Origin: Escherichia coli
Lineage (GTDB): Bacteria; Pseudomonadota; Gammaproteobacteria; Enterobacterales; Enterobacteriaceae
DNA: 64,000 bases
NCBI RefSeq assembly: GCF_024223415.1
Contig: NZ_CP100502.1
Reading direction: 5' to 3' (one strand)
The first letter of the stretch is position 1; the number at the start of each line of letters is the position of its first letter. The notes under the pieces are model-generated. The model saw only the letters and a list, made by a program, of their open reading frames with translations, was not told the origin of the DNA and did not search any database. A program made the translations under genes and the position numbers. This document shows positions 2,966 through 63,606 of this stretch, in pieces.

Positions 2966-3003
2966 GGGGAGCCCGCAGAATTCGGAAAAAATCGTACGCT
3001 AAG
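2966..3003. repeat. 38-bp terminal inverted repeat of a Tn21-subgroup transposon (Tn1721/Tn501-like, contains GAATTC)
   Basis: GGGGAGCCCGCAGAATTCGGAAAAAATCGTACGCTAAG overlapping the tnpA stop codon, as in Tn21-family elements. Confidence 0.7.
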
Positions 3004-5965: not shown

Positions 5966-5968
5966 GTG

Positions 5969-6704: not shown

Positions 6705-7055
6705 TCAACCTGACGGCGGCGAATCACAAGCGTCCGGTTTGACGCTGGTTTCGGTCGCAGTGCTGGCCCGCGCCTGGAAGCGCTGATAGCACTCCAGCCC
6801 GCAGAAATGCTCCACGTACTCGGCCCCTTCCGGCGTGAAGGCGGCATCGAGCGGGATTTCCTTGCAGCACACGCAGCAACTGGTGCTCGGTTCATTGGCG
6901 TTCATGGTGGTGTTCCTCCATTGGTTGACGAAGCCGACGAAGGCCGCCGCCGGCATCGGCCTGGCGAACAGGAAACCCTGCACCGTGTCGCAACCCGCCT
7001 GCCGCAACCACGCAAGGCAGTCGGGTGTTTCCACACCCTCGGCTACCACCTCCAT
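6705..7055 (-). CDS. tnpM: TnpM (urf2M) of Tn21, start codon abutting integron IRi
   Basis: 116-aa C-terminal part of listed ORF beginning [21 protein letters not shown]; start lies directly against IRi at 7056. Confidence 0.6.
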
Positions 7056-7080
7056 TGTCGTTTTCAGAAGACGGCTGCAC
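7056..7080. repeat. IRi, 25-bp inverted repeat marking the intI1 end of a class 1 integron
   Basis: TGTCGTTTTCAGAAGACGGCTGCAC. Confidence 0.8.
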
Positions 7081-7257
7081 TGAACGTCAGAAGCCGACTG
7101 CACTATAGCAGCGGAGGGGTTGGATCCATCAGGCAACGACGGGCTGCTGCCGGCCATCAGCGGACGCAGGGAGGACTTTCCGCAACCGGCCGTTCGATGC
7201 GGCACCGATGGCCTTCGCGCAGGGGTAGTGAATCCGCCAGGATTGACTTGCGCTGCC

Positions 7258-8271
7258 CTACCTCTCACTAGTGAGGGGCGGCAGCGCATCAAGCGGTGAG
7301 CGCACTCCGGCACCGCCAACTTTCAGCACATGCGTGTAAATCATCGTCGTAGAGACGTCGGAATGGCCGAGCAGATCCTGCACGGTTCGAATGTCGTAAC
7401 CGCTGCGGAGCAAGGCCGTCGCGAACGAGTGGCGGAGGGTGTGCGGTGTGGCGGGCTTCGTGATGCCTGCTTGTTCTACGGCACGTTTGAAGGCGCGCTG
7501 AAAGGTCTGGTCATACATGTGATGGCGACGCACGACACCGCTCCGTGGATCGGTCGAATGCGTGTGCTGCGCAAAAACCCAGAACCACGGCCAGGAATGC
7601 CCGGCGCGCGGATACTTCCGCTCAAGGGCGTCGGGAAGCGCAACGCCGCTGCGGCCCTCGGCCTGGTCCTTCAGCCACCATGCCCGTGCACGCGACAGCT
7701 GCTCGCGCAGGCTGGGTGCCAAGCTCTCGGGTAACATCAAGGCCCGATCCTTGGAGCCCTTGCCCTCCCGCACGATGATCGTGCCGTGATCGAAATCCAG
7801 ATCCTTGACCCGCAGTTGCAAACCCTCACTGATCCGCATGCCCGTTCCATACAGAAGCTGGGCGAACAAACGATGCTCGCCTTCCAGAAAACCGAGGATG
7901 CGAACCACTTCATCCGGGGTCAGCACCACCGGCAAGCGCCGCGACGGCCGAGGTCTTCCGATCTCCTGAAGCCAGGGCAGATCCGTGCACAGCACCTTGC
8001 CGTAGAAGAACAGCAAGGCCGCCAATGCCTGACGATGCGTGGAGACCGAAACCTTGCGCTCGTTCGCCAGCCAGGACAGAAATGCCTCGACTTCGCTGCT
8101 GCCCAAGGTTGCCGGGTGACGCACACCGTGGAAACGGATGAAGGCACGAACCCAGTGGACATAAGCCTGTTCGGTTCGTAAGCTGTAATGCAAGTAGCGT
8201 ATGCGCTCACGCAACTGGTCCAGAACCTTGACCGAACGCAGCGGTGGTAACGGCGCAGTGGCGGTTTTCAT
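7258..8271 (-). CDS. intI1: Class 1 integron integrase
   Basis: 337-aa ORF beginning [49 protein letters not shown]. Confidence 0.95.
8156..8184 (+). promoter_or_regulatory. Integron cassette promoter Pc, weak variant (-35 TGGACA, 17-bp spacer, -10 TAAGCT); P2 inactive (14-bp spacer between TTGTTA and TACAGT)
   Basis: Hexamers read directly inside the intI1 coding region; no GGG insertion between TTGTTA and TACAGT near 8290. Confidence 0.7.
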
Positions 8272-8289
8272 GGCTTGTTATGACTGTTT

Positions 8290-8410
8290 TTTTGTACAGT
8301 CTATGCCTCGGGCATCCAAGCAGCAAGCGCGTTACGCCGTGGGTCGATGTTTGATGTTATGGAGCAGCAACGATGTTACGCAGCAGGGCAGTCGCCCTAA
8401 AACAAAGTTA
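8290..8410. other. attI1 recombination site region
   Basis: Sequence ending CCCTAAAACAAAGTTA at the cassette boundary upstream of dfrA1. Confidence 0.6.
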
Positions 8411-8427
8411 ACCTCTGAGGAAGAATT

Positions 8428-8901
8428 GTGAAACTATCACTAATGGTAGCTATATCGAAGAATGGAGTTATCGGGAATGGCCCTGATATTCCATGGAGTG
8501 CCAAAGGTGAACAGCTCCTGTTTAAAGCTATTACCTATAACCAATGGCTGTTGGTTGGACGCAAGACTTTTGAATCAATGGGAGCATTACCCAACCGAAA
8601 GTATGCGGTCGTAACACGTTCAAGTTTTACATCTGACAATGAGAACGTAGTGATCTTTCCATCAATTAAAGATGCTTTAACCAACCTAAAGAAAATAACG
8701 GATCATGTCATTGTTTCAGGTGGTGGGGAGATATACAAAAGCCTGATCGATCAAGTAGATACACTACATATATCTACAATAGACATCGAGCCGGAAGGTG
8801 ATGTTTACTTTCCTGAAATCCCCAGCAATTTTAGGCCAGTTTTTACCCAAGACTTCGCCTCTAACATAAATTATAGTTACCAAATCTGGCAAAAGGGTTA
8901 A
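8428..8901 (+). CDS. dfrA1: Trimethoprim-resistant dihydrofolate reductase DfrA1 (gene cassette)
   Basis: 157-aa ORF with GTG start, [52 protein letters not shown]. Confidence 0.9.
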
Positions 8902-8993: not shown

Positions 8994-9297
8994 ATGAGGG
9001 AAGCGGTGATCGCCGAAGTATCGACTCAACTATCAGAGGTAGTTGGCGTCATCGAGCGCCATCTCGAACCGACGTTGCTGGCCGTACATTTGTACGGCTC
9101 CGCAGTGGATGGCGGCCTGAAGCCACACAGTGATATTGATTTGCTGGTTACGGTGACCGTAAGGCTTGATGAAACAACGCGGCGAGCTTTGATCAACGAC
9201 CTTTTGGAAACTTCGGCTTCCCCTGGAGAGAGCGAGATTCTCCGCGCTGTAGAAGTCACCATTGTTGTGCACGACGACATCATTCCGTGGCGTTATC
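8994..9297 (+). pseudogene. aadA1: aadA1 streptomycin/spectinomycin adenylyltransferase, 3'-truncated (about 101 of 263 codons) by Tn2 IRR
   Basis: Begins MREAVIAEVSTQLSEVVGVIERHLEPTLLAVHLYGSAVDGGLKPHSDIDLL; reading frame runs straight into the Tn2 inverted repeat at 9298. Confidence 0.85.
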
Positions 9298-9444: not shown

Positions 9445-10317
<873 letters not shown>

Positions 10318-11208: not shown

Positions 11209-14200
11209 ATGCCCGTTGACTTTCTGACCACTGAGCAGACTGAAAGCTATGGCAGATTCACCGGTGAACCGGATGAGCTTCAGCTGGCACGATATTTTCA
11301 CCTTGATGAAGCAGACAAGGAATTTATCGGAAAAAGCAGAGGTGATCACAACCGTCTGGGCATTGCCCTGCAAATTGGATGTGTCCGTTTTCTGGGCACC
11401 TTCCTCACCGATATGAATCATATTCCTTCCGGCGTCCGGCATTTTACCGCCAGACAGCTCGGGATTCGTGATATCACCGTTCTTGCAGAATACGGTCAGA
11501 GGGAAAATACCCGCCGTGAGCATGCAGCGCTGATACGTCAGCACTATCAGTATCGTGAATTTGCCTGGCCCTGGACATTTCGCCTTACCCGTCTTTTATA
11601 TACCCGGAGCTGGATAAGCAACGAACGTCCTGGCCTGCTTTTCGATCTGGCGACAGGGTGGCTTATGCAACATCGTATTATTCTCCCCGGAGCCACTACG
11701 CTGACCCGGTTGATTTCAGAGGTAAGGGAAAAGGCGACGTTGCGCCTGTGGAACAAACTGGCACTGATACCGTCAGCCGAACAGCGTTCACAGCTGGAGA
11801 TGCTGCTGGGGCCAACTGATTGCAGCCGCCTGTCTTTACTGGAATCACTGAAAAAGGGCCCTGTGACCATCAGTGGTCCGGCGTTTAATGAAGCAATTGA
11901 ACGCTGGAAAACTCTGAACGATTTTGGCCTGCATGCTGAAAACCTGAGTACACTCCCGGCTGTGCGCCTGAAAAATCTCGCACGTTATGCTGGTATGACT
12001 TCGGTGTTCAATATTGCCAGGATGTCACCGCAGAAAAGGATGGCGGTTCTGGTTGCCTTTGTCCTTGCATGGGAAACGCTGGCGCTGGATGATGCATTGG
12101 ACGTTCTGGACGCCATGCTGGCCGTTATCATCCGTGACGCCAGAAAGATTGGGCAGAAAAAACGGCTCCGCTCGCTGAAGGATCTGGATAAATCTGCATT
12201 GGCGCTCGCCAGCGCATGTTCGTACCTGCTGAAAGAAGAAACACCGGACGAATCGATTCGTGCTGAGGTGTTCAGCTACATCCCAAGGCAAAAGCTGGCT
12301 GAAATCATCACGCTTGTCCGTGAAATTGCCCGGCCCTCAGACGATAATTTTCATGAAGAAATGGTGGAGCAGTACGGGCGCGTTCGTCGTTTCCTGCCCC
12401 ATCTGCTGAATACCGTTAAATTTTCATCCGCACCTGCCGGGGTTACCACTCTGAATGCCTGTGACTACCTCAGCCGGGAGTTCAGCTCACGGCGGCAGTT
12501 TTTTGACGACGCACCAACGGAAATTATCAGTCGGTCATGGAAACGGCTGGTGATTAACAAGGAAAAACATATCACCCGCAGGGGATACACGCTCTGCTTT
12601 CTCAGTAAACTGCAGGATAGTCTGAGGCGGAGGGATGTCTACGTTACCGGCAGTAACCGGTGGGGAGATCCTCGTGCAAGATTACTACAGGGTGCTGACT
12701 GGCAGGCAAACCGGATTAAGGTTTATCGTTCTTTGGGGCACCCGACAGACCCGCAGGAAGCAATAAAATCTCTGGGTCATCAGCTTGATAGTCGTTACAG
12801 ACAGGTTGCTGCACGTCTTTGCGAAAATGAGGCTGTCGAACTCGATGTTTCTGGCCCGAAGCCCCGGTTGACAATTTCTCCCCTCGCCAGTCTTGATGAG
12901 CCGGACAGTCTGAAACGACTGAGCAAAATGATCAGTGATCTACTCCCTCCGGTGGATTTAACGGAGTTGCTGCTCGAAATTAACGCCCATACCGGATTTG
13001 CTGATGAGTTTTTCCATGCTAGTGAAGCCAGTGCCAGAGTTGATGATCTGCCCGTCAGCATCAGCGCCGTGCTGATGGCTGAAGCCTGCAATATCGGTCT
13101 GGAACCACTGATCAGATCAAATGTTCCTGCACTGACCCGACACCGGCTGAACTGGACAAAAGCGAACTATCTGCGGGCTGAAACTATCACCAGCGCTAAT
13201 GCCAGACTGGTTGATTTTCAGGCAACGCTGCCACTGGCACAGATATGGGGTGGAGGAGAAGTGGCATCTGCAGATGGAATGCGCTTTGTTACGCCAGTCA
13301 GAACAATCAATGCCGGACCGAACCGCAAATACTTTGGTAATAACAGAGGGATCACCTGGTACAACTTTGTGTCCGATCAGTATTCCGGCTTTCATGGCAT
13401 CGTTATACCGGGGACGCTGAGGGACTCTATCTTTGTGCTGGAAGGTCTTCTGGAACAGGAGACCGGGCTGAATCCAACCGAAATTATGACCGATACAGCA
13501 GGTGCCAGCGAACTTGTCTTTGGCCTTTTCTGGCTGCTGGGATACCAGTTTTCTCCACGCCTGGCTGATGCCGGTGCTTCGGTTTTCTGGCGAATGGACC
13601 ATGATGCCGACTATGGCGTGCTGAATGATATTGCCAGAGGGCAATCAGATCCCCGAAAAATAGTCCTTCAGTGGGACGAAATGATCCGGACCGCTGGCTC
13701 CCTGAAGCTGGGCAAAGTACAGGTTTCAGTGCTGGTCCGTTCATTGCTGAAAAGTGAACGTCCTTCCGGACTGACTCAGGCAATCATTGAAGTGGGGCGC
13801 ATCAACAAAACGCTGTATCTGCTTAATTATATTGATGATGAAGATTACCGCCGGCGCATTCTGACCCAGCTTAATCGGGGAGAAAGTCGCCATGCCGTTG
13901 CCAGAGCCATCTGTCACGGTCAAAAAGGTGAGATAAGAAAACGATATACCGACGGTCAGGAAGATCAACTGGGCACACTGGGGCTGGTCACTAACGCCGT
14001 CGTGTTATGGAACACTATTTATATGCAGGCAGCCCTGGATCATCTCCGGGCGCAGGGTGAAACACTGAATGATGAAGATATCGCACGCCTCTCCCCGCTT
14101 TGCCACGGACATATCAATATGCTCGGCCATTATTCCTTCACGCTGGCAGAACTGGTGACCAAAGGACATCTGAGACCATTAAAAGAGGCGTCAGAGGCAG

Positions 14201-14660: not shown

Positions 14661-14913
14661 CCGCCTTCATCTCCGCTTCAGTTTCGTATAAATCAAAACG
14701 ACGGCAGGTATGGCAGAACGTGACGTATTCGTACGGTGAATCCGGGTACATTTTGTGGAAGGTTTCCCAGAAACAGACCGTACAGGAGGGATGACCGGCG
14801 ATAAAGTCTGTAAATACAGACTGATAAGGGTGATTATTGGCCCTGGCGACGGCTTTCAGAACCTCTTTCACCATTCTGGTGTGGACTTTCTGGTGCTCCA
14901 GGTTGTGTGACAT
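14641..14913 (-). CDS. Cys/His-rich ORF upstream of and overlapping the IS91-family tnpA start in another frame (upstream accessory ORF or frameshifted N-terminus)
   Basis: 90-aa ORF with HPSCTVCFWETFHKMY...CHTCRRF; overlaps tnpA by 20 nt in a different frame. Confidence 0.35.
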   Translation of the reverse strand: MSHNLEHQKVHTRMVKEVLKAVARANNHPYQSVFTDFIAGHPSCTVCFWETFHKMYPDSPYEYVTFCHTCRRFDLYETEAEMKADDPKWW

Positions 14914-39495: not shown

Positions 39496-40179
39496 ATGTC
39501 CCGTTTTGTCCTCGGTAACTGCATTGATGTTATGGCGCGTATTCCTGATAACGGCATTGATTTCATACTGACTGACCCGCCATACCTCGTCGGTTTTCGT
39601 GACCGACAGGGGCGTACCATCGCCGGCGATAAAACCGATGAATGGCTGCAACCAGCCTGTAATGAAATGTATCGCGTACTCAAAAAAGATGCGCTGATGG
39701 TCAGCTTCTACGGCTGGAACCGCGTCGATCGCTTTATGGCCGCCTGGAAAAATGCGGGATTCAGTGTGGTTGGGCACCTGGTCTTCACCAAAAACTACAC
39801 ATCGAAGGCCGCATATGTGGGTTATCGCCACGAATGCGCCTACGTTCTGGCAAAAGGCCGTCCGGCGCTGCCTCAGAAGCCATTACCCGACGTGCTGGGC
39901 TGGAAATATTCAGGCAATCGTCATCACCCGACGGAAAAGCCTGTTACCAGCCTGCAACCACTGATTGAGAGCTTCACACATCCGAACGCGATTGTGCTGG
40001 ACCCGTTTGCAGGCAGCGGCTCAACCTGCGTGGCTGCCCTTCAGTCCGGACGCCGGTATATCGGTATCGAGCTGCTTGAGCAGTATCACCGTGCCGGACA
40101 GCAACGTCTGGCTGCCGTACAGCGGGCCATGCAGCAGGGGGCCGCAAATGATGACTGGTTTATGCCGGAGGCTGCGTAA
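39496..40179 (+). CDS. Orphan DNA methyltransferase (N6-adenine/N4-cytosine type, DPPY motif)
   Basis: 227-aa ORF; DPPY motif and FAGSGST AdoMet-binding motif. Confidence 0.85.
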   Translation: MSRFVLGNCIDVMARIPDNGIDFILTDPPYLVGFRDRQGRTIAGDKTDEWLQPACNEMYRVLKKDALMVSFYGWNRVDRFMAAWKNAGFSVVGHLVFTKNYTSKAAYVGYRHECAYVLAKGRPALPQKPLPDVLGWKYSGNRHHPTEKPVTSLQPLIESFTHPNAIVLDPFAGSGSTCVAALQSGRRYIGIELLEQYHRAGQQRLAAVQRAMQQGAANDDWFMPEAA

Positions 40180-41668: not shown

Positions 41669-41726
41669 TGACACTGGCGGGGTAAATCCCCGCCTTTTTC
41701 CTGCCGGTCCCCGGACAGAGCACAAA

Positions 41727-42058
41727 GGAAGTCGCCGCCGGCTCCGCTTTACCCGGCCATGCGGGGCATGGCCTTGTGGGTTTTCAGTTATGTGGCCACC
41801 GTGTCGTGTGCGGGCTGTGCCGTGCCTCCATCTTAGCCGGGCTGGCAGGGATGCAAGGGTACGCTTCGCCGCTGCGGTCACCCGGTCCCTCCTTCCCGTC
41901 TGCCGTGATTTTCCGGTCGTTCACCCGCTCAGATTTCGCGGTCTCACCCTCCAACTCCCGCCAGCCGTGTGCGTCAGGCTGCGGCTTCCCTTGCGCCCTG
42001 TGCATCCCCGCCTTATCGCCCGGCTTTTATGGAGGCACGGCACCGCCCGGTGTCGCGG
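41727..42058. repeat. Leading-region GC-rich repeat, family B copy 1 (Frpo/ssi-like single-strand promoter candidate)
   Basis: About 330 bp nearly identical to 48711-49040; directly upstream of klcA/ardB-like gene. Confidence 0.7.
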
Positions 42059-42085
42059 AATATGTGAACAACGGAGGAATACATC

Positions 42086-42511
42086 ATGCAATATGCGAAA
42101 CCTGTCACTCTGAATGTTGAAGAGTGCGACCGTCTGTTTTTTCTGCCTTACCTGTTTGGCCAGGATTTTCTGTATGTCGAAGCGTCTGTGTACGCGCTGG
42201 CGAAAAAAATGATGCCGGAATATGAAGGCGGATTCTGGCACTTCATCCGCCTGCCGGACGGTGGCGGCTACATGATGCCGGATGGCGACCGTTTCCACAT
42301 AGTGAACGGTGCAAACTGGTTTGACCGTACCGTGAGTGCTGATGCCTGCGGCATCATTCTGACTTCCCTTGTGATTAACCGCCAGTTGTGGCTGTACCAC
42401 GACAGCGGTGATGCAGGACTGACCCAGCTTTACCGGATGCGCGATGCGCAGTTGTGGCGTCACATCGAATTTCACCCTGAATGCAACGCGATTTACGCGG
42501 CTCTGGACTGA
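42086..42511 (+). CDS. klcA: Antirestriction protein, KlcA/ArdB family
   Basis: 141 aa; [17 protein letters not shown] and C-terminal NAIYAALD motifs recalled from KlcA. Confidence 0.75.
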
Positions 42512-43168: not shown

Positions 43169-43404
43169 TACAGGGGCAGGCGGTGGAGGCCGCCTGTCAG
43201 CCCGCGCGAAAACCCCTGGCAGGCTGACGCCTGCCGGAAGGGAAGCGGGCCACGCTGGCGCGTCGCCCGTTACCCTTCCCGTCTGTGATGTGTCTGACTC
43301 AGGAGTGTTTCTTTCTTATGTTATGGAACTGTTCCTGATGTTGTTGTTCCTTTATCTGCTGCTCTGATTCTGACTACTGCAGTGTTGTTCTGTCTGCCGG
43401 GCGC

Positions 43405-43920
43405 ACCTTCGGCTCCCGGCTGCCTGGCGGCATCCGGTCGTCAGGCCCGACTCCGACAGGCAGCTGCTGGCGCACCCGCCAGTCTCCGCCGAACCCGCTG
43501 GCGCGGTTTCGGGCTGTCGCTACGGTCCGATGCGTGAAAACCCGGGCTTGCAGCGACCGTTCCGGTCGCGCCGCCTCTGTCGCGCCGTGACCTGCGCTCC
43601 CTGCACACCTGACGGTGTGTGAGGAAACTGCGCCTGATGGCGCAGCAGTCCTCCCTCCTGCCGCCACCTCTGCGGCCTGTTTCCCGCTGTGGACTTTCCG
43701 GGGGGCAGACGTAACCCCCTCCCGTTCCATCTGTCCAGGGTGAGATGCACCGGCCACAAAATTTTTAGCCATGAACCCGGCAAAAAATTTTGCGTCCGCC
43801 CCCGGACAGCTGTCCCGTGAGGCGGTAAACGGGCCCCCATCGGAAAGGTCCACTGCGGGGAGAAACCCCTGTGAAGTGGACGGCAGGAGGAGCTTTCGCT
43901 CCTCTGAAGGGGCACATGAA
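43405..43920. repeat. Leading-region GC-rich repeat, family A copy 1 (Frpo/ssi-like)
   Basis: About 515 bp highly similar to 49739-50255 and, in part, 52815-53150; directly upstream of ssb. Confidence 0.7.
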
Positions 43921-43973: not shown

Positions 43974-44501
43974 ATGAGTGCACGTGGTATCAACAAGGTC
44001 ATCCTCGTCGGGCGTCTGGGCAATGATCCGGAGGTCCGTTACATCCCCAACGGTGGCGCAGTGGCAAACCTGCAGGTGGCCACGTCAGAAAGCTGGCGCG
44101 ACAAACAGACGGGGGAGATGCGGGAGCAGACGGAATGGCACCGTGTTGTGCTGTTCGGCAAGCTCGCGGAAGTGGCAGGTGAATATCTGCGCAAGGGCGC
44201 GCAGGTCTACATCGAGGGGCAACTCCGTACCCGTAGCTGGGACGACAACGGCATCACCCGCTACATCACTGAAATTCTTGTTAAGACCACGGGCACCATG
44301 CAGATGCTGGGGAGTGCACCACAGCAGAACGCTCAGGCGCAACCGAAGCCTCAGCAGAATGGGCAGCCACAGAGTGCTGACGCGACGAAAAAAGGTGGCG
44401 CGAAAACGAAAGGCCGTGGACGTAAGGCCGCGCAGCCCGAGCCTCAGCCGCAAACGCCGGAGGGGGAGGATTACGGGTTTTCAGACGACATCCCGTTCTG
44501 A
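43974..44501 (+). CDS. ssb: Plasmid single-stranded DNA-binding protein
   Basis: 175 aa; OB-fold N-terminus, Gln/Pro-rich linker, acidic tail DDIPF. Confidence 0.95.
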
Positions 44502-48607: not shown

Positions 48608-48710
48608 ACCAGACATGTATATTTTACGCAGGGACACGCCGATCATGATCGTTTCATATCAGGGGTGGTCTGGAGGTCATGCGGCGTGTCCTCTGCACTC
48701 GCCGGAATAA

Positions 48711-49040
48711 GGAAGTCGCCGGCGGCTCCGCTTTTACCCGGCCATGCGGGGCATGGCCTTGTGGGTTTTCAGCTCTGTGGCCTCAGCGTCGTGTGCGGGC
48801 TGTGCCGTGCCTCCATCTTAGCCGGGCTGGCAGGGATGCAAGGGTACGCTTCGCCGCTGCGGTCACCCGGTCCCTCCTTCCCGTCTGCCGTGATTTTCCG
48901 GTCGTTCACCCGCTCAGATTTCGCGGTCTCACCCTCCAACTCCCGCCAGCCGTGTGCGTCAGGCTGCGGCTTCCCTTGCGCCCTGTGCATCCCCGCCTTA
49001 TCGCCCGGCTTTTATGGAGGCACGGCACCGCCCGGTGTCG
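48711..49040. repeat. Leading-region repeat, family B copy 2 (Frpo/ssi-like)
   Basis: Nearly identical to 41727-42058; directly upstream of ardA. Confidence 0.7.
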
Positions 49041-49069
49041 CAGAACATGTGACTATGGAGGATTCGGGA

Positions 49070-49570
49070 ATGTCTGTTGTTGCACCTGCTGTATACGTTG
49101 GAACCTGGCACAAATACAACTGTGGAAGCATCGCTGGCCGCTGGTTTGACCTGGCCACGTTTGATGATGAACGCGACTTTTTCGCCGCCTGCCGCTCTCT
49201 TCACCAGGATGAAGCCGATCCTGAACTGATGTTTCAGGATTATGAGGGATTCCCGGGGAATATGGCCTCAGAATGCCATATCAACTGGGCCTATGTTGAA
49301 GGCTTCCGCCAGGCGCGGGATGAAGGCTGCGAAGAGGCTTATCGTCTCTGGGTGGATGATACCGGTGAGACGGATTTTGACACCTTCCGCGATGCCTGGT
49401 GGGGCGAGGCTGACAGTGAGGAGGCTTTTGCGGTTGAGTTCGCCAGTGATACCGGCCTGCTGGCTGACGTGCCGGAGACGGTGGCGCTCTATTTTGACTA
49501 TGAGGCGTATGCGCGGGATTTATTCCTGGACTCCTTCACCTTTATTGACGGTCATGTGTTCCGTCGGTGA
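49070..49570 (+). CDS. ardA: Antirestriction protein ArdA (DNA mimic)
   Basis: 166-aa highly acidic protein [28 protein letters not shown]. Confidence 0.9.
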
Positions 49571-49738: not shown

Positions 49739-50255
49739 GAGGCGGGGACACCTTCGGCTCCCGGCTGCCTGGCGGCATCCGGTCGTCAGGCCCGACTCCG
49801 ACAGGCAGCTGCTGGCGCACCCGCCAGTCTCCGCCGAACCCGCTGGCGCGGTTTCGGGCTGCCGCTACGGTCCGATGTCTGAAAAACCAGGCTTGCAGCG
49901 ACCGTTCCGGTCGCGCCGCCCCTGTCGCGCCGGAAACGGCGCTCCCTGCACACCTTACGGTGTGTAAGGCAACTGCGCCTGATGGCGCAGTCAACCCTTC
50001 CGCCGCCACCCCTGCGGCCTGTTTCCCGCTGTGGACTTTCCGGGGGCTGGAGTAACCACATCCCGTTTCAGCAGTCCAGGGGAAGATATACCGTCCACAA
50101 AATTTTTAGCCATAAACCCGGCAAAAAATTTTGCGTCCGCCCCCGGACAGCTGCCCCGTGACGTGGTGACGGACGCCCCATCGGAAAGGTCCACTGCGGG
50201 GAGAAACCCCGAAGAAGTGGACGGCAGAAGGGGCTTTCGCCCCTCCGGGGAGCAA
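49739..50255. repeat. Leading-region repeat, family A copy 2 (Frpo/ssi-like)
   Basis: Highly similar to 43405-43920. Confidence 0.7.
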
Positions 50256-50298: not shown

Positions 50299-50733
50299 AT
50301 GACAGTCAGCAGCACGATTTCCGTTTTTTGCCGCGACGGGGTGTTCCGTACCGTTTACTGCCACCTGCACGGGGAGCCGACCTGGAACGGTCGCATCCTG
50401 CATACTCACTATGCCACCGGTCAGCAGGCCGAAGCCCTGGTTGAACACGGTGATATCCGTTGCCTCGGTCCCCGTTGTGACAAACCCGCCGGGCATACGC
50501 TTCAGAACCCGGTGGACGGTGTGACGGCTTATTACGGACGTGACAGTGGTTTCCGGATGGACAGTGAGGCGCGTGAGTACCGTTCTTTCAGGGAGGCTAT
50601 TGCCACTGAAAGCACTGAAGAGGTGCGCTTCCATTATGTGTTCATCGACGGCTACTGGAAGGTGATGTACCGCACGCCGGAAGGCTGGAAGATGAAAGCG
50701 CTCGCGCTGGCACTGCGTCGCTGTCCGAAATGA
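50299..50733 (+). CDS. Hypothetical protein directly downstream of a family A repeat
   Basis: 144-aa ORF with SD AGGAGA. Confidence 0.55.
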   Translation: MTVSSTISVFCRDGVFRTVYCHLHGEPTWNGRILHTHYATGQQAEALVEHGDIRCLGPRCDKPAGHTLQNPVDGVTAYYGRDSGFRMDSEAREYRSFREAIATESTEEVRFHYVFIDGYWKVMYRTPEGWKMKALALALRRCPK

Positions 50734-50824
50734 AAAAAAGGCAGGGCGATAAACCCTGCCTCTCTCCGCCGTTACTTCCCCGCCAGGAAGAGCGGCAGTC
50801 ATCAACAACATAAGGAGTAATATT

Positions 50825-51091
50825 GTGAGACCATCAATTATCTTCGCAACCGCCGAGTATGTAAAGCGTCTGCGTGAAGAGTGCCTGCGGGAGAATAAAC
50901 CCCTGCACCGCCATACCCGCTTCAGACGTCAGGAGCTGGCACAGGATGAGATTAACCCGGACGTCCTGGCGATGAGCGGCCATATCGCCAGACGCTGCAG
51001 TGAGCAGAAGCGGGTGCGTATCCCCGCTATGAAAGTCAGCGAATGGGGCCACCTGCTCCGCGCGCTTGAAATTGAGCGGGTCTGCCACTGA
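50825..51091 (+). CDS. Hypothetical small basic protein
   Basis: 88-aa ORF, GTG start, SD AAGGAG. Confidence 0.45.
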   Translation: MRPSIIFATAEYVKRLREECLRENKPLHRHTRFRRQELAQDEINPDVLAMSGHIARRCSEQKRVRIPAMKVSEWGHLLRALEIERVCH

Positions 51092-51155
51092 TTAACCCTT
51101 GCCGTCTGCCTGTGCAGGCGGCAGGATACGTTCAGACATCTCACCAGGAGGAACC

Positions 51156-52097
51156 GTGAGTAAGAAGAAAAACACCACAACGCCCACGCCGCATGATGCC
51201 GCGTTCCGGTCGTTCCTGGCGAATCCCGACGTCGCCAGAGATTTTCTGGAACTGCATCTTCCTGCGGAGTACCGGCAGTTGTGCGACCTGTCCACGCTGA
51301 AGCTGGAACCCGCCACCTTTGTTGAGCCGGACCTGCATCAGTACGCCAGCGATATCCTCTGGAGCGTGAAAACCACCGGGGGTGAAGATGGTTATGTTTA
51401 TACGCTCATCGAGCACCAGAGCACCGAAAATCTGTACATGCCTTTTCGCATGTTACGCTACAGTGTGGCGGCGATGCAGAGACATCTGGAGCAGCACAAA
51501 ACGTTGCCACTGGTCATTCCGGTGCTGTTCTATCACGGTGAGCGCAGCCCGTACCCGTACAGCATGAACTGGCTGGACTGTTTTGAGAATCCGGCGCTTG
51601 CGGCTAAAATATACACAAAGCCGTTTCCGCTGGTTGATATCACTGTCGTTGATGACAATGAAATCATGAACCATCGCCGGATGGCCGCACTGACGCTGCT
51701 GATGAAGCATATCCGTCAGCGGGATATGCTGATGTGTCTGGACAACCTGGTCAGAGCACTGCAGGACATCCAGGATGAAGAGCAGATTACAGTTCTTTTC
51801 AACTATCTGCTTAATGGCAGCGAACATGTAACGGTTGAATTTTTGCAGACGCTGGCGCAGCGACTGCCGCAGCACGAGGACAGCATTATGACACTGGCAG
51901 AACGTCTTAAGCAGGAAGGTATCCAGCAAGGTATCCAGCAGGGTATCCAGCAGGGTATCCAGCAGGGAGTTCAGCAGGGGGCGCTTCAAAAAGCACGGGA
52001 AATCGCCCGGGAGCTCCGGAACGCGGGAATGCCGGCAGCACAAATCTGTCAGCTGACCGGACTTTCTGAAGCTGAACTGAAGAACATCACTCACTGA
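51156..52097 (+). CDS. Rpn-family (YhgA-like) recombination-promoting nuclease
   Basis: 313 aa from GTG; PD-(D/E)xK-type N-terminal region, C-terminal QQGIQQG repeat. Confidence 0.75.
   Translation: MSKKKNTTTPTPHDAAFRSFLANPDVARDFLELHLPAEYRQLCDLSTLKLEPATFVEPDLHQYASDILWSVKTTGGEDGYVYTLIEHQSTENLYMPFRMLRYSVAAMQRHLEQHKTLPLVIPVLFYHGERSPYPYSMNWLDCFENPALAAKIYTKPFPLVDITVVDDNEIMNHRRMAALTLLMKHIRQRDMLMCLDNLVRALQDIQDEEQITVLFNYLLNGSEHVTVEFLQTLAQRLPQHEDSIMTLAERLKQEGIQQGIQQGIQQGIQQGVQQGALQKAREIARELRNAGMPAAQICQLTGLSEAELKNITH
51918..51977 (+). repeat. Five tandem 12-bp repeats (GGTATCCAGCAG-like) encoding (QQGI)n within the Rpn gene
   Basis: Read directly. Confidence 0.85.
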
Positions 52098-52158
52098 TGA
52101 GAGCCAAAAGGCCCGGCAAAATGCCGGGCCTTTTGCCAGCAGGAGCAGAGAAAACAGT

Positions 52159-52329
52159 ATGACGATTGCAGAACGTCTTATACAGAAAGGTTTTGAAAAA
52201 GGTGCTCTTGAAGTGGCGCGGGAAATAGCCTGCCGGCTTCGGGATATGGGCTGGACGCCGGAACGGATTCAGGAGGCCACGGGACTTTCCGGTGAAGAAC
52301 TGAAAAAACTGTTTCCTGATGAGCAGTAG
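52159..52329 (+). CDS. Small ORF resembling the C-terminal domain of the adjacent Rpn protein (RpnS-like)
   Basis: 56-aa MTIAERLIQKGFEKGALEVAREIACRLRDMGWTPERIQEATGLSGEELKKLFPDEQ; parallels Rpn C-terminus; SD AGGAGCAGAG. Confidence 0.5.
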   Translation: MTIAERLIQKGFEKGALEVAREIACRLRDMGWTPERIQEATGLSGEELKKLFPDEQ

Positions 52330-52359
52330 CCTGGCATTCTGCCAGGCTGTGAACCACGC

Positions 52360-52611
52360 TCACACATCCTCTGCCGTTTCCCCCAGTTCATTTTCCAGAC
52401 GCCTGATGATATCTGCCTTGCGCATCCCCTGCATGTGAGGCAGCAGGTCACGGACTGAAAGTGCCTGGGTGGTCCTCCAGACGGTGACATCCACCTGTTC
52501 CGCATTTTCCCAGGCGTGCCATGTTCTCTGTGTCACGCCAAATTCTCTGGCCGCTTTTTCGCGTGACCAGAGCATGCTTTTTCGCCAGATTCGCAGTTCC
52601 CAGCCGGTCAT
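52360..52611 (-). CDS. Small helix-turn-helix regulator (XRE-like)
   Basis: 83-aa ORF with HTH-like segment. Confidence 0.5.
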   Translation of the reverse strand: MTGWELRIWRKSMLWSREKAAREFGVTQRTWHAWENAEQVDVTVWRTTQALSVRDLLPHMQGMRKADIIRRLENELGETAEDV

Positions 52612-52814
52612 AAAACACCTTTGAAAAAGTGAAAAAACTTCACTTTATTTTATCACCATAACCACCAAATCAGCGCGAAAAATAAGTGTGAAAAAGTGAA
52701 GGAATTTCACTTTTTTTGATTGTAGGTGTCGTGCTGTTTTCTCTGTTTTCACCTGTGCGGGAGTGGTGTGCCAGTGACCACCACATGCCATTGTTGCGCC
52801 GTCGTTTTTCTTCA

Positions 52815-53150
52815 GTCGCGCCGGATGCGGCGCTCCCTGCACACCTTACGGTGTGTAAGGCCACTGCGCCTGATGGCGCAGCTGTCTCTGCCTGTCTGCC
52901 GCCGCACTGCGGCCTGTTCTCCGCAGATGGACTTTCCGGGGGTACATACACGACCACATCCCGTTTCAGTCGTCCAGGGGAGAGATGTACCAGCCACAAA
53001 ACTTTTTGCCGCAGGCGTCAAAAACTTTTGCGTCTGCCCCCGGACAACTGCCCCGTGACGTGGTGAGCGTCCCCCGTCGGAAAGGTCCACTGCGGGGAAA
53101 TCCCCGAAGACCCGGACGGCAGAAGGAGCTTCGCTCCTCCGGGAAATGAC
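52815..53150. repeat. Leading-region repeat, family A copy 3 (partial)
   Basis: Aligns with the distal two-thirds of the family A repeats. Confidence 0.65.
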
Positions 53151-53187
53151 CTGGCTGACCCGGCAGTCGTGACGATGAGGAGACAAT

Positions 53188-54039
53188 GTGATGAATCAGA
53201 CTTTACCCACTGCTGACCTGAATACTGCCGGCACGACAGATGTTATTCCGTCTGTGGCCATCGACCGCATCATCGCGCAGCGTAACGAAGGTATTGCACT
53301 GTTCATGCAGGCGATGGAATGCCTGGCGACAGCGCGCAGGATTCTGCTTGATGCGTCAGGTGATATTTTTCTTTACGGTTTTGAAGACTGCGTGACCGAC
53401 TCCGTTCGGTGCATGGATAAACCGGAAGAAGCGAAAAGGAATATCACCCGTCTTGCCGACCGGAAAATCTGGGACCGCCTGATGACGGATACGGGGATGT
53501 ACACCTTCATGAGTTCATGTCAGCGTGATGAGTGGAACAGCCAGCTGATGAGCGACACCTGTCCTGAAATCACCCTGGACAATGTACTGGCAACTTTTCG
53601 CCATCTGAATGCCAGTAAGATGCAGACATTTGAACAGGGACTGATTGATGTCTACCGGAAATTGTCATGGGATTACAGAACCAATAATCCCTGCCGTCTG
53701 GGCAAGAGAATCATTATTGAAAACCTGCTGTACCGCTGGAGTAACGGGCGTGTTACGCTGGACTGCAGCGGACGGGAGGCACTGGATGACCTGGTACGTC
53801 CGTTTTATCTGCTGGAGGGGCGCAACGTTCCTGACTTCCGGAGCAGCATCGGGGCGCAGTACGGTGAATTTATCGGGAACGGCGACAATGTCGGTAAGCT
53901 GTTAGAAGGGGAATATTTTACGGTGCGTGGCTACCAGAAAGGGACCGTACACATTGTCTTTAAGCGTCCTGACCTTGTTGAAAAACTGAATGATATTATT
54001 GCACGGCATTATCCTGGTTCATTGCCGCCACGAGTCTGA
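53188..54039 (+). CDS. Hypothetical protein directly downstream of the partial family A repeat
   Basis: 283-aa ORF with SD GAGGAG. Confidence 0.55.
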   Translation: MMNQTLPTADLNTAGTTDVIPSVAIDRIIAQRNEGIALFMQAMECLATARRILLDASGDIFLYGFEDCVTDSVRCMDKPEEAKRNITRLADRKIWDRLMTDTGMYTFMSSCQRDEWNSQLMSDTCPEITLDNVLATFRHLNASKMQTFEQGLIDVYRKLSWDYRTNNPCRLGKRIIIENLLYRWSNGRVTLDCSGREALDDLVRPFYLLEGRNVPDFRSSIGAQYGEFIGNGDNVGKLLEGEYFTVRGYQKGTVHIVFKRPDLVEKLNDIIARHYPGSLPPRV

Positions 54040-54123
54040 TTAAACAGAAAAGCCCTGGTATTTATGCCGGGGCTTTTTTTCTGTAATCATCATAATATCA
54101 GAACATGATGTGACATTGTCACA

Positions 54124-54465
54124 TCAATTGTTGTTCATATCGATGCCATCTTTCCTGGCTGAATCTGTCTTTTTAGATGCTGTTTTAGAGGAAGAACGGC
54201 GGGATGGCTTTTTCGATTCTGCTTCCCGAATAATGTCACGAAGTGCCTTCTCTCCTACTTCATACCCTGCATTTTTGAGCGTATCACGAACATCTGCCAG
54301 TGTATAACCCTTTGTCCTTACCAGAACAATAATGTCATCACGAATGGCATCAAGAAAATCACGCAATGTTTTCCGTTGAGCGGTGAGATCTGGCAATTCC
54401 GATAAAGCAGCTTTTGCCAGCTGGATGTCATCATCTGAGTAAAATTTTTTAGAAGCCATTGGCAC
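54124..54465 (-). CDS. Hypothetical protein transcribed divergently from nikA next to oriT
   Basis: 113-aa ORF with Lys/Ser-rich C-terminal tail. Confidence 0.45.
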   Translation of the reverse strand: MPMASKKFYSDDDIQLAKAALSELPDLTAQRKTLRDFLDAIRDDIIVLVRTKGYTLADVRDTLKNAGYEVGEKALRDIIREAESKKPSRRSSSKTASKKTDSARKDGIDMNNN

Positions 54466-54692: not shown

Positions 54693-55025
54693 GTGAGTGA
54701 TAGTGCGGTAAGAAAGAAAAGTGAGGTACGGCAAAAGACAGTTGTCAGGACACTCAGATTCTCTCCTGTTGAGGATGAAACCATCAGGAAAAAAGCTGAA
54801 GATTCCGGACTTACTGTATCTGCTTACATCCGAAATGCAGCACTGAATAAGCGAATTAACTCCCGTACAGATGATGCTTTTCTGAAGGAGTTAATGAGAC
54901 TGGGAAGGATGCAGAAGCATCTGTTTGTTCAGGGAAAAAGAACCGGTGACAAGGAATACGCAGAAGTGCTTGTTGCCATAACCGAACTTACAAATACATT
55001 GCGTAAACAGTTAATGGAAGGTTGA
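54693..55025 (+). CDS. nikA: Relaxosome accessory protein NikA (ribbon-helix-helix)
   Basis: 110 aa from GTG, MSDSAVRKKSEVRQKTVVRTLRFSPVEDETIRKK. Confidence 0.85.
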   Translation: MSDSAVRKKSEVRQKTVVRTLRFSPVEDETIRKKAEDSGLTVSAYIRNAALNKRINSRTDDAFLKELMRLGRMQKHLFVQGKRTGDKEYAEVLVAITELTNTLRKQLMEG

Positions 55026-55035
55026 GGATTCTCCG

Positions 55036-57735
55036 GTGAATGCAGTCATTCCGAAAAAGAGAAGGGACGGCAAGTCTTCGTTCGAAGACCTGGTATCCTA
55101 CGTCTCTGTCCGGGATGACATGACCGATGAGGAACTGGATTTATCTTCTTCTTCGCAGGCTGAACAACCGCACCGAAGCCGTTTCAGTCGCCTTGTTGAT
55201 TATGCGACACGTCTTCGAAATGAGTCATTCGTGGCGCTGGTTGATGTCATGAAGGACGGCTGCGAATGGGTCAACTTTTATGGTGTCACCTGCTTTCATA
55301 ACTGTACTTCTCTTGAAACTGCCGCTGCAGATATGGAGTACATTGCCCGGCAGGCACACTATGCAAAAGATGACACTGATCCTGTTTTTCACTACATCCT
55401 TTCCTGGCAGTCACATGAAAGCCCGCGTCCGGAACAGATTTATGACAGTGTACGTCATACGCTGAAATCACTCGGCCTTGCCGACCATCAGTATGTCTCT
55501 GCCGTGCATACTGATACAGATAATCTGCACGTCCATGTGGCTGTTAACCGGGTACACCCTGAAACGGGTTATCTGAACCGGTTATCCTGGAGTCAGGAAA
55601 AACTCAGTCGTGCCTGCCGTGAGCTTGAACTGAAGCATGGTTTTGCTCCGGATAACGGTTGCTGGGTCCATGCACCGGGAAATCGTATCGTTCGCAAAAC
55701 CGCCGTTGAACGTGATCGCCAGAACGCGTGGACACGCGGGAAAAAACAAACTTTTCGCGAGTATGTCGCGCAGACAGCGGTCGCTGGTTTACGCAGTGAA
55801 CCTGTAAATGACTGGTTATCCCTGCATCGTCGTCTTGCGGAAGATGGTCTGTACCTGTCTCAGATGGACGGAAAATTTCTGGTGATGGATGGCTGGGATC
55901 GCAACAGGGAAGGTGTACAGCTTGACTCGTTTGGTCCCTCCTGGTGTGCAGAAAAACTCATGAAAAAAATGGGTGACTACACGCCAGTACCAAAAGACAT
56001 TTTCAGCCAGGTGGAAGCACCAGGACGCTATAATCCGGACTTCATTGCCGCTGATGTTCGCCCGGAAAAAATCGCTGAAACAGAAAGTCTGCAGCAGTAT
56101 GCCTGTCGTCATCTTGGAGAACGTCTGCCGGAAATGGCACGGGAAGGACGGCTGGAAAACTGCCAGGCTATTCACCGCACACTGGCTGAAGCGGGATTAT
56201 GGATGCGTGTTCAGCATGGTCACCTGGTTATCTGTGACGGTTATGATCATAACCAGACTCCCGTTCGTGCTGACAGCGTATGGTCGCTGCTGACGCTCGA
56301 CAATGTGAATCAACTCGATGGTGGCTGGCAGCCTGTACCAACAGATATTTTCCGCCAGGTTACGCCAACAGAACGCTTCCGTGGTCGTCGTATGGAGAGC
56401 TGTCCTGCGACCGATAAAGAATGGCACCGTATGCGTACAGGCACGGGGCCGCAGGGGGCTATCAAACGCGAACTGTTTTCTGACAAAGAAAGTCTGTGGG
56501 GATACAGCATCAGCCATTGTAGCCCTCAGATTGAAGAAATGATCACACAGGGTGAGTTTACCTGGCAGCGTTGTCATGAGCTGTTTGCACAACAGGGACT
56601 GATGCTACAGAAACAACATCACGGGCTTGTTGTCGTTGATGCCTTTAATCATGAGCAAACGCCGGTGAAGGCCAGCAGCATTCATCCTGATCTGACACTG
56701 GGGCGTGCAGAGCCACAGGCCGGACCTTTTGTGAGTGCCCCAGCAGATTTGTTTGACAGGGTGCAACCTGAAAGTCGCTATAACCCGGAGCTGGCTGTCA
56801 GTGACAGGTACGGGGTCAGCAGTAAACGTGACCCAATGCTGCGCCGGCAGCGACGTGAAGCCAGAGCTGAGGCCCGTGCTGACCTGCGTGCCCGCTATCT
56901 GGCATGGCGTGAACAATGGCGTAAACCAGATCTGCGTTATGGGGAACGTTGTCGGGAAATTCATCAGGCATGCCGTCTGCGGAAGTCACACATTCGTGCG
57001 CAGTACGATGATCCGGCATTACGTAAGCTGCATTATCACATTGCAGAAGTTCAGCGAATGCAGGCATTGATCAGGCTGAAAGAAGACATCAGGGATGAGC
57101 GACAGAAACTTATTGCTGATGGGAAATGGTATCCACCCTCTTACCGTCAGTGGGTCGAAATTCAGGCTGCTCAGGGAGACAGGGCTGCTGTATCGCAGCT
57201 GAGAGGCTGGGATTATCGCGATCGCCGTAAAGACAGGTCACGCACAACGACGACAGACCGCTGTGTCGTGCTTTGTGAACCGGGCGGAACGCCGGTATAC
57301 GGTAATACCGGTGATCTCGAGGCCCGTCTGCAGAAGAACGGGAGTGTTCGTTTCCGTGACCGTCGGACGGGAGAGTTTGTCTGTACGGATTATGGTGACA
57401 GGGTTGTTTTCCGTAATCACCATGACCGCAATGCGCTGGCAGATAAACTGGATTTGATTGCACCGGTATTATTCGGGCGTGATCCACGCATGGGTTTTGA
57501 ACCAGAAGGAAACGACAAACAATTTAACCAGGTCTTTGCTGAAATGGTTGCCTGGCATAATGTGACAGGCCGTACCGGTCACGAAGACTACAGGATTACG
57601 CGACCGGACGTGGATCATCACCGTGAAGGAAGTGAACGCTACTACCGCGATTATATCGCGGCGAACAGCAACAATGACGCATCACTGCCTCCGCCGGAGC
57701 AGGATAAACGCTGGGAACCGCCTTCTCCAGGTTAA
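55036..57735 (+). CDS. nikB: Relaxase NikB
   Basis: 899-aa ORF with relaxase histidine motif HVHVAVNRVHPETG. Confidence 0.9.
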   Translation: MNAVIPKKRRDGKSSFEDLVSYVSVRDDMTDEELDLSSSSQAEQPHRSRFSRLVDYATRLRNESFVALVDVMKDGCEWVNFYGVTCFHNCTSLETAAADMEYIARQAHYAKDDTDPVFHYILSWQSHESPRPEQIYDSVRHTLKSLGLADHQYVSAVHTDTDNLHVHVAVNRVHPETGYLNRLSWSQEKLSRACRELELKHGFAPDNGCWVHAPGNRIVRKTAVERDRQNAWTRGKKQTFREYVAQTAVAGLRSEPVNDWLSLHRRLAEDGLYLSQMDGKFLVMDGWDRNREGVQLDSFGPSWCAEKLMKKMGDYTPVPKDIFSQVEAPGRYNPDFIAADVRPEKIAETESLQQYACRHLGERLPEMAREGRLENCQAIHRTLAEAGLWMRVQHGHLVICDGYDHNQTPVRADSVWSLLTLDNVNQLDGGWQPVPTDIFRQVTPTERFRGRRMESCPATDKEWHRMRTGTGPQGAIKRELFSDKESLWGYSISHCSPQIEEMITQGEFTWQRCHELFAQQGLMLQKQHHGLVVVDAFNHEQTPVKASSIHPDLTLGRAEPQAGPFVSAPADLFDRVQPESRYNPELAVSDRYGVSSKRDPMLRRQRREARAEARADLRARYLAWREQWRKPDLRYGERCREIHQACRLRKSHIRAQYDDPALRKLHYHIAEVQRMQALIRLKEDIRDERQKLIADGKWYPPSYRQWVEIQAAQGDRAAVSQLRGWDYRDRRKDRSRTTTTDRCVVLCEPGGTPVYGNTGDLEARLQKNGSVRFRDRRTGEFVCTDYGDRVVFRNHHDRNALADKLDLIAPVLFGRDPRMGFEPEGNDKQFNQVFAEMVAWHNVTGRTGHEDYRITRPDVDHHREGSERYYRDYIAANSNNDASLPPPEQDKRWEPPSPG

Positions 57736-62353: not shown

Positions 62354-62644
62354 GACAAAGTCTCCATTTCTGGAATTTAAATCAAACGGAAAGGTTAAAA
62401 ATTTATTTGCAGGCGATAAGAGCTAACCAGAGGAATTAGCCGTGCGATAAAAGGATTGTTGCAGATACGAAAGTCGTTAGAATAGCTGCGGGCGCTTGAG
62501 GCTGTATGCCGAAAGCGTTTTGTGGACGGTATACAGCAGAAAGCCCCTGGAGATTTTTTTATCAATCAACCAAGGGCTCTACTGTAATGCCTAGACAACA
62601 TTATAGTAGCCCGATAACCGCCGTAAGGCAATGGAGGGGCTATG

Positions 62645-62797
62645 ATGCCACAGCGAACGTTTTTAATGATGTTAATCGTCATCTGTGTGACGATTCTGTG
62701 TTTTGTCTGGATGGTGAGGGATTCGCTTTGCGGACTCCGGCTCCAGCAGGGAAACACAGTGCTTGTGGCAACGTTAGCCTACGAAGTTAAACGTTAA
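62645..62797 (+). CDS. pndA: Hok-family toxin PndA (type I toxin-antitoxin); overlapping pndC-like frame and antisense RNA expected upstream
   Basis: 50-aa MPQRTFLMMLIVICVTILCFVWMVRDSLCGLRLQQGNTVLVATLAYEVKR; below the size cutoff of the ORF track. Confidence 0.85.
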   Translation: MPQRTFLMMLIVICVTILCFVWMVRDSLCGLRLQQGNTVLVATLAYEVKR

Positions 62798-63120: not shown

Positions 63121-63606
63121 CGGATTTTCTCTCTGTATTTATGGGTAGTTATCGAACTGAATGTGCCAGTTTTTTCAGGAGACGGCAAAGTTGAGATGAT
63201 TGGTTCTGATTCAGAGCATGAGTTTCCTCGGTGTGACGGGCATGTCGGGCGGATTTTGAGAAACAACAGATGTAAAAAAACCGACTGGTGAGGTCGGTTT
63301 TTTTACTGTTCCGTTACAGAGTGGGTGGCCCTGACCGGAGGAAATCTCTTTTCAACTAACGTTCTTATAATAGCGAGCTGTTCATTTGATAGCAACCATC
63401 CTTATAATCCGCAGGTTAGCTCTGTCTGGCGACACTTCTGCCGTGATATCCATCGGGACTATGGATGCAAGATTTTAAGTCCTGGCTGAACAAACAGGTG
63501 GTGCTGTGTTCAGTGCTCTGGCAGGAGGAAGTCTCTTTTCAACTAACACTGAAAGTGCCGTTGTGACAGGCAATGTAAGAGTAAGCAACGGTGATTTCCT
63601 CCAGTG

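Follow-up and report, generated by a model that had tools for sequence, protein, structure and literature searches.

Two leading-region genes of an IncI1-complex plasmid, ydfA and ydiA, lie behind single-stranded DNA promoters and are candidates for early action in the recipient cell

Results

Two genes at the oriT-proximal end of an IncI1-complex leading region

The window analyzed here, a stretch of 64,000 nucleotides (nt) of Escherichia coli contig NZ_CP100502.1 (assembly GCF_024223415.1), carries two open reading frames (ORFs) that are the subject of this study: ydfA (ORF144, WP_000218863; 50299..50733, + strand), which encodes a protein of 144 amino acids (aa), and ydiA (ORF283, WP_001077047; 53188..54039, + strand), which encodes a stand-alone DUF4942 protein. 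An earlier sequence-only reading of this DNA had placed both genes directly behind copies of a repeat ("family A") resembling the Frpo elements of the F plasmid and had proposed them, by position, as candidates for new anti-defence or establishment genes, with anti-restriction, anti-CRISPR or anti-SOS functions in mind. Both frames are present as it described them, the first opening with ATG (144 aa) and the second with GTG (283 aa); RefSeq starts the latter one codon later, at ATG 53191, to give 282 aa. Each is preceded by a good Shine-Dalgarno site (AAGGAG for ORF144 and GAGGAG for ORF283).

Many IncI1-complex plasmids from E. coli, Salmonella and Shigella match the segment 49600-54600 at 100% identity, among them NZ_CP100546, whose gene order reads psiB, psiA, ardA, a 144-aa hypothetical protein, an Rpn nuclease, a helix-turn-helix (HTH) regulator on the opposite strand, a DUF4942 protein, nikA and nikB. 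YdiA itself is 100% identical to a Shigella sonnei plasmid record (NC_002122). The window is thus an IncI1-complex plasmid, and the segment under study is the oriT-proximal end of its leading region, running into oriT and the relaxosome gene nikA (54693..55025, + strand), the landmark for the oriT side of that region, with nikB (55036-57735) behind it. The + strand genes of the segment all face oriT, located just upstream of nikA, so that the - strand is both the transferred strand and their template. As the last + strand gene before oriT, ydiA is therefore the first gene into the recipient.

The family A repeats are class 1 single-stranded DNA promoters

Three family A copies lie in the window, each forming its hairpin on the - strand. 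In the numbering of Benz et al. they are ssi3 (43576..43904), upstream of ssb (43974-44501; NF010292, 6.5e-116); ssi2 (49924..50249), upstream of ydfA; and ssi1 (52815..53143), the copy nearest oriT, upstream of ydiA. In repeat searches they were 81-90% identical to one another over ~330 nt (E 1e-67 to <1e-100), and the first two copies have ~500 nt in common, their similarity extending from 43398 and 49743, respectively. Between repeat end and start codon lie 70 nt at ssb, 50 nt at ydfA and 45-48 nt at ydiA, and the two ORFs do indeed follow a family A repeat directly. Folded as single-stranded DNA (ssDNA), the - strand of the second copy adopts a long imperfect hairpin with a minimum free energy of -118 kcal/mol (z = -9.3) and that of the third copy a similar one of -110.7 kcal/mol (z = -8.5); in neither case was any of 100 shuffled sequences as stable. 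At their apex the hairpins are A/T-rich, and they contain an unpaired bulge reading GTATATC, GTACATC or GTGCATC. BLAST matches of the repeats in the F plasmid fall at two sites, upstream of ssb (Frpo2) and of ygeA (Frpo1), and the central stem is preserved in the three IncI1 and two F copies, with pairs changed on both sides (compensatory changes) at 17 positions. The repeats have the placement of class 1 elements: they lie within the leading region, ahead of genes that read toward oriT and in the same orientation as these. A promoter scan of the + strand found no sigma-70 promoter upstream of either ORF.

Plasmid pESBL-EA11 has the same layout, with hairpins 99.4% identical to those of the window (the figure for ssi2 being likewise 99.4%), a YdfA 99.3% identical and a YdiA 97.9% identical. 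Because layout, hairpins and proteins correspond so closely, experiments made with pESBL apply to the orthologous loci examined here. Benz et al. (bioRxiv 10.1101/2022.07.06.498992) described three leading-region operons transcribed from ssi3-1. According to Wen et al. 2025 (PMC12672017), RNA sequencing of early pESBL transconjugants revealed six leading-region operons induced up to ~500-fold, and rapid amplification of 5' ends (5'RACE) mapped start sites at ssi1-3 as well as at class 2 and class 3 hairpins. The same authors assign ssi1-3 together with Frpo to class 1, the ardA and klcA hairpins to class 2 and the M.EcoGIX hairpin to class 3. The repeats of the window are alike in sequence, transferred-strand hairpin, position and orientation to the ssi1-3/Frpo promoters of ColIb-P9, pESBL and F (Masai & Arai 1997; Bates et al. 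1999; Couturier et al. 2023; Wen et al. 2025), from which they show no material difference; the family A repeats and the published class 1 ssDNA promoters ssi1-3 are the same elements. The Frpo-like character claimed for them is borne out by their homology to Frpo1 and Frpo2 of F, their transferred-strand hairpin and their leading-region position, both ORFs being the first cistrons behind them. Since the 99%-identical pESBL hairpins are experimentally mapped ssDNA promoters, the two operons of the window are expected to be transcribed from the entering single strand.

The sequence-only reading had extended the same arrangement to ssb and to the antirestriction genes. This is correct for ssb. 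The ardA gene (49070-49570) and the klcA-like gene (42086-42511) are instead directly preceded by members of a second repeat family (48709-49062 and 41725-42078, respectively), whose two copies are 96.6% identical to one another and unrelated to family A. On the - strand this second repeat also forms a long hairpin (z = -4.9), and F holds a 95% identical copy; its published counterparts are the ssDNA promoters placed in class 2 by Wen et al. 2025 (PMC12672017).

Two further observations concern the hairpins. In a Salmonella plasmid with a NikA-like relaxase, the most conserved 47-nt segment of Frpo occurs four times (at its positions 6211-6257, 9042-9088, 12742-12788 and 14845-14891), three of these upstream of leading-region genes (an operon with the DUF4942 gene of that plasmid, ssb, and a 148-aa ORF beside nikA), and thus the same promoter type serves a different backbone. 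In addition, RefSeq lists "hypothetical protein" ORFs that lie wholly inside Frpo-like repeats on the opposite strand (43398-43775, - strand, in the window; 9808-10164, - strand, in F), and some database entries named "PndC" (251 or 184 aa) owe their greater length to an upstream extension of YdfA across the hairpin. Both look like annotation artefacts of GC-rich palindromic DNA.

YdfA belongs to a large phage and plasmid family

The exact YdfA sequence is a member of a 90%-identity cluster of 1,578 sequences, many of whose records are titled "post-segregation killing protein PndC"; the R64-style name YdfA comes from phage annotation (GAP32_348, "similar to YdfA"). No Pfam, NCBIfam or PADLOC model matched the protein and a search of PDB sequences was uninformative, in agreement with the earlier statement that no domain could be assigned to it. 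It does match phrog_1987 and phrog_23089 over its full length (5.3e-21 and 4.8e-19, respectively), two PHROG families without assigned function. An exhaustive HMMER search (E <= 1e-3) recovered relatives in 1,981 clusters at 50% identity, of similar length and at 30-50% identity.

An alignment of 71 family members has 27 columns conserved at 75% or more; it shows an N-terminal MxTRS motif, YCHxDGY, GDxSxL, an invariant His66, YGRDRG, Tyr113 and Trp120. The conserved polar set consists of His22, His66 and Arg81-Asp82, to which most members add Asp24; the IncI1 protein retains His22, His66, Arg81 and Asp82. Along their whole length the phage proteins of phrog_1987 and phrog_23089 (KVP40.0229 and GAP32_348) resemble YdfA, from which they differ in that the IncI1 protein is substituted at four near-invariant positions. 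The AlphaFold2 model of YdfA is a compact alpha/beta fold predicted with high confidence (predicted local distance difference test, pLDDT, 96.2).

T4-like and jumbo phages encode homologues of YdfA amid blocks of hypothetical genes (KVP40.0229, GAP32_348), and others lie on plasmid-like contigs beside ArdC or DUF932 genes. The neighborhoods of distant homologues that were inspected, made up of phage genes of no assigned function or of plasmid leading-region genes, revealed no recurrent partner gene. In the single case of GAP32, genes for a nicotinamide mononucleotide adenylyltransferase and PnuC lie ~2 kb from the homologue. The C-terminal extensions of long homologues are not conserved, one having a WYL_2 and one a gp32-like domain. 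In PLSDB, YdfA occurs on 2,014 plasmids, 94% of them conjugative, and 98% of its copies are at least 95% identical.

YdiA is a methyltransferase module without its catalytic half

The failure to assign a domain does not hold for YdiA, which matches DUF4942 (PF13708) with an E-value of 5.7e-51 over model positions 5-189 of 190. Nothing but DUF4942 emerged when the protein was compared with NCBIfam, Pfam, PADLOC and PDB sequences, apart from a partial PADLOC hit at 0.0043. YdiA is a member of a 90%-identity cluster of 9,732 sequences, and its relatives at 49-78% identity are stand-alone proteins of ~285 aa found across Enterobacterales, with 34 invariant columns. At least 5,000 PLSDB plasmids carry a homologue (92% of them conjugative); ~3,000 of these homologues are less than 60% identical to YdiA and occur in Klebsiella, Enterobacter and other genera. 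Three homologues with 51-57% identity lie, in the same orientation, in the leading regions of other MOBP/MOBF plasmids, and one of their operons has an Frpo-like sequence upstream.

DUF4942 is also the N-terminal half of phage "DNA methyltransferases" of 520-560 aa, exemplified by gp32 of Marinomonas phage P12026, SSU5_095 of a Salmonella phage and gp22 of Pseudomonas phage phiPSA1. Metagenomic relatives display the full architecture: DUF4942, a linker, and then QFYPTP...EPSAGxG...NPPF, the motif order of gamma-class N6-adenine methyltransferases. YdiA resembles these fusions over the whole module, including the core ERVDGIFRxLSxxHVTNxPxGFxKRMI and the end KGTxHxxxHPxxxxxLNxxLAxxYP. Unlike them, it ends before the linker and lacks QFYPTP, the S-adenosylmethionine (SAM)-binding motif EPSAGxG and the catalytic motif NPPF. 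Judging from these alignments, YdiA is the N-terminal, non-catalytic module of a phage and plasmid gamma-class methyltransferase family. The label "methyltransferase" was consequently rejected for YdiA, in which SAM-binding motif I and catalytic motif IV are absent and only DUF4942 is detected; a protein that lacks the motifs of the catalytic domain and stops before that domain cannot itself be a methyltransferase. The AlphaFold2 model (pLDDT 84.9) has a helical N-terminal half and an alpha/beta C-terminal half, with no Rossmann fold.

Neighboring genes and other features of the window

The operon headed by ydfA continues on the + strand with an 88-aa ORF of unassigned function (50825..51091), the second cistron behind ssi2, and with a recombination-promoting nuclease of the Rpn family (YhgA-like; 51156..52097, the frame opening mechanically at 51099; TIGR01784, 4.4e-52) as the third. 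A 56-aa ORF (52159..52329, + strand) then follows as a diverged duplicate of the C-terminal domain of Rpn, sharing 50% identity over 36 aa with the Rpn C-terminus (51879-52097) and 74% nucleotide identity over 54 nt. Small products of the Rpn C-terminus have been described that serve as antitoxins to Rpn toxins.

On the opposite strand to its neighbors lies the gene of an 83-aa HTH regulator (52360..52611, - strand), which for that reason is not readable from the entering strand and is expressible only after conversion to duplex. Between its start and the ydiA hairpin, within 52612..52720, are two AAAGTGAA-N5-TTCACTTT palindromes centered near 52636 and 52703. They are probably operator sites of the HTH protein encoded beside them, which in established cells could act as a repressor of ydiA or of its own gene. 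Samuel et al. (PMC11541004) list an HTH family annotated "anti-CRISPR-associated gene 6" (aca6), seemingly near oriT and on the opposite strand, to which the 83-aa gene may correspond.

Beyond ydiA, a perfect 21-nt palindrome resembling a terminator (54106..54126) separates this gene from a convergent ORF of 113 aa beside oriT (54124-54465, - strand). The product of the latter is basic and is annotated in pESBL as [quoted passage not shown]; it is probably a mislabelled MobC of the relaxosome type. Farther away in the window, a block of 62-66% GC at 3000-8500 ends at an attI/aminoglycoside-leader Rfam match (8361-8432, 70.6 bits) and has the look of an inserted class 1 integron or resistance island.

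Discussion

The proposal that genes in these positions are anti-defence candidates is found in earlier work (Benz et al.; Samuel et al. 2024, PMC11541004; Wen et al. 2025, PMC12672017). Among the top 25 families enriched in leading regions, Samuel et al. 2024 (PMC11541004, Supplementary Table 1) rank the DUF4942/YdiA family 24th, with a size of 2,171 and with the apparent position and strand columns reading 1 and T-strand; rank 23 is held by a family labelled "PndC", which is probably the 144-aa YdfA. With the layout published, both families in that ranking and the sequence identical to long-known plasmids, the arrangement and the hypothesis were already known. The present analysis corrects two misleading labels, sets out the domain logic of YdiA and, for the YdfA family, supplies its scope, the confidence of its fold and its conserved residues.

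The explanation that we tentatively favor for the locus as a whole is early expression from ssDNA promoters of two proteins that protect or establish the incoming DNA. The hairpins form only on the entering (-, transferred) strand and there, in keeping with the data on the pESBL orthologues, recruit RNA polymerase, such that the operon ydfA–orf88–rpn–orf56 would be expressed within minutes of entry, before complementary-strand synthesis. The ydiA operon, the first to enter, would show the same early expression, and both would fall silent upon conversion to duplex. YdfA and YdiA would then act in the recipient at this early moment, protecting the incoming DNA or helping to establish it. YdiA might present the same nucleic-acid- or partner-binding surface as the fused enzymes and, without methylating, blunt a restriction-type attack; YdfA might be a small enzyme or ligand-binding protein acting on a host factor or signal. 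A positional parallel is provided by ygeA/ygeB of F (DUF932), whose Frpo1 operon beside oriT resembles ydiA in position, orientation and homologous ssDNA promoter, its expression being early and transient (PMC9849209). The proteins themselves are unrelated, and F has no homologue of YdiA or YdfA.

An anti-defence role for YdfA and YdiA is plausible. Profile searches matched neither protein to a housekeeping family. Structure prediction provided models of both; fold searches with these models yielded no informative structural match. Neither protein shows sequence or fold similarity to ArdA, KlcA/ArdB or ArdC, and, as seen above, ardA and klcA are driven from a different (class 2) hairpin. DNA mimicry of the ArdA/Ocr type was rejected for both from their isoelectric points: YdfA is mildly basic (8.3), and for this reason not a DNA mimic, and YdiA (5.75) is not strongly acidic in comparison with ArdA (4.08). 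Taken together, our confidence in the functional proposals for YdiA and YdfA is moderate to low.

Several observations weigh against the favored explanation. On the side of expression, canonical -35/-10 hexamers were not located in the hairpin arms by a simple consensus scan and inspection of the folds, and we infer the induction of ydfA and ydiA themselves in pESBL from text on the six operons. The ydfA operon also includes the Rpn nuclease gene, itself not an obvious candidate for anti-defence. The IncI1 YdfA differs from the consensus of its family at four polar positions that are nearly invariant (T3V, D24H, S54R and R83S); with these substitutions it is perhaps not catalytically active, and it may be a diverged or non-catalytic member of its family. 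Its model has no neighbor in the PDB, where no solved anti-defence protein or enzyme is similar, and a Foldseek search of AFDB50 returned only entries named "uncharacterized" or "PndC". Its plasmid range is narrow, almost confined to one backbone. The YdiA model is likewise without a PDB neighbor (Z <=5.1) and matched no methyltransferase or solved anti-defence protein; a role of DUF4942 within the fused methyltransferases, in DNA recognition or otherwise, is one that we infer. The DNA methylase encoded by the plasmid itself is a beta-class enzyme, not meaningfully similar to the gamma-class domain found in the fusions. Finally, literature searches on DUF4942, ydiA and ydfA turned up no functional study, and the transposon-sequencing (Tn-seq) paper on pESBL had nothing on ydfA or ydiA.

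A more specific and more daring form of the proposal holds that YdfA represents an unnamed enzyme or ligand-binding fold, widespread among lytic phages and conjugative plasmids, that neutralizes a host immune pathway within minutes of entry, and that YdiA is a "headless" methyltransferase module that blocks restriction without methylating. We regard this version as a long shot. Were it true, either protein would represent a new mechanistic class of counter-defence protein present on thousands of resistance plasmids.

The main rival is that YdfA, YdiA or both serve the establishment or processing of the DNA (protection of the 5' end, recircularization with NikB, priming or the timing of complementary-strand synthesis) and not anti-defence; they would then be of importance in defence-free recipients too. 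A precedent for such a role comes from the oriT-nearest Frpo operon of F, ygeA/ygeB, which is required for efficient conjugation: in isogenic laboratory strains, conjugation was 3.9% for delta-ygeA against 92.6% (PMC9849209). Frpo hairpins have further been described in a recent preprint (bioRxiv 10.64898/2026.01.09.698686) as roadblocks in the way of synthesis of the complementary strand, ydiA is the gene nearest oriT and keeps its leading-region position in other backbones, and the two long YdfA homologues with fused domains carry a gp32-like ssDNA-binding domain and a WYL_2 domain. These fusions are, however, single sequences each. F lacks a homologue of either protein, and thus Frpo-type establishment cannot in general depend on them; YdfA homologues, moreover, are common in lytic phages, which do not enter by conjugation. 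On balance we consider an establishment role for these proteins rather unlikely, ahead of the remaining alternatives.

YdiA could otherwise be a subunit that targets methylation in trans, pairing with the ssDNA methylase of the plasmid or with a host enzyme so that the entering DNA escapes restriction. In its favor, phage and plasmid enzymes carry DUF4942 and a methyltransferase domain on one polypeptide, leading-region genes include orphan methylases as a major class (PMC11541004), and one such methylase is encoded in this same leading region (39496-40179; NF010253, 6.8e-151). This enzyme, however, has DPPY before its SAM motif and, being of the beta class, is unlike the gamma-class domain of the DUF4942 fusions; a Rosetta-stone link between YdiA and the plasmid methylase was rejected in view of the different enzyme classes and the absence of similarity. 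Nor does a small stand-alone gamma-class methylase lie beside ydiA, here or in the other plasmids that were inspected. A trans-acting subunit appears improbable.

Slightly less probable still is that ydfA and ydiA are passengers or decaying genes on a conserved IncI1 backbone, transcribed by virtue of their position and of no benefit to transfer or survival. Such a reading would accommodate the loss of four near-invariant family residues in the IncI1 YdfA and the near clonality of this protein across plasmids, as well as the missing catalytic half of YdiA and the truncation of several database relatives of both. Yet both frames are intact in thousands of plasmids and have strong ribosome-binding sites, class 1 promoters are reported by Wen et al. 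2025 (PMC12672017) to be the strongest of the three classes, and YdiA homologues at ~50% identity retain 34 invariant columns, full length and the leading-region position on unrelated backbones.

An identification of ORF144 with PndC, part of the pnd system (hok/sok-type) of post-segregational killing, is hardly tenable: the exact sequence bears this name in NCBI and UniProt records, and Samuel et al. use it for family 23, but the genuine pnd locus, with its sok RNA (62490-62647; Rfam, 134 bits), 51-aa Hok-family toxin (62642-62797) and overlapping leader frame (62506-62790), lies at 62.49-62.80 kb, a position confirmed by the "trbA-pndC" locus of IncI1 plasmid multilocus sequence typing, which puts pndC beside trbA (PMC2887853). 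ORF144, a soluble alpha/beta protein of 144 aa with phage homologues, is ~12 kb away, unrelated, and devoid of Hok, Mok or sok features; the assignment was rejected. We note that ~600 nt past the pnd locus is a match to an AgrB-type antisense RNA (63272-63359), next to which the matching plasmid has an annotated DinQ-like toxin.

IncI1 plasmids are major carriers of extended-spectrum beta-lactamase (ESBL) and other resistance genes, and many of their early leading-region genes are still without known biological function, as stated by Wen et al. 2025 (PMC12672017). For YdfA, the analysis defines a large phage and plasmid family with a confidently predicted fold that has no PDB precedent and a short list of conserved residues for mutation. 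For YdiA, its reading as the non-catalytic half of a phage methyltransferase family leads to concrete binding and methylome experiments. If a counter-defence role is true, it would bear on at least 2,000 sequenced plasmids in the case of YdfA, or at least 5,000 in that of DUF4942.

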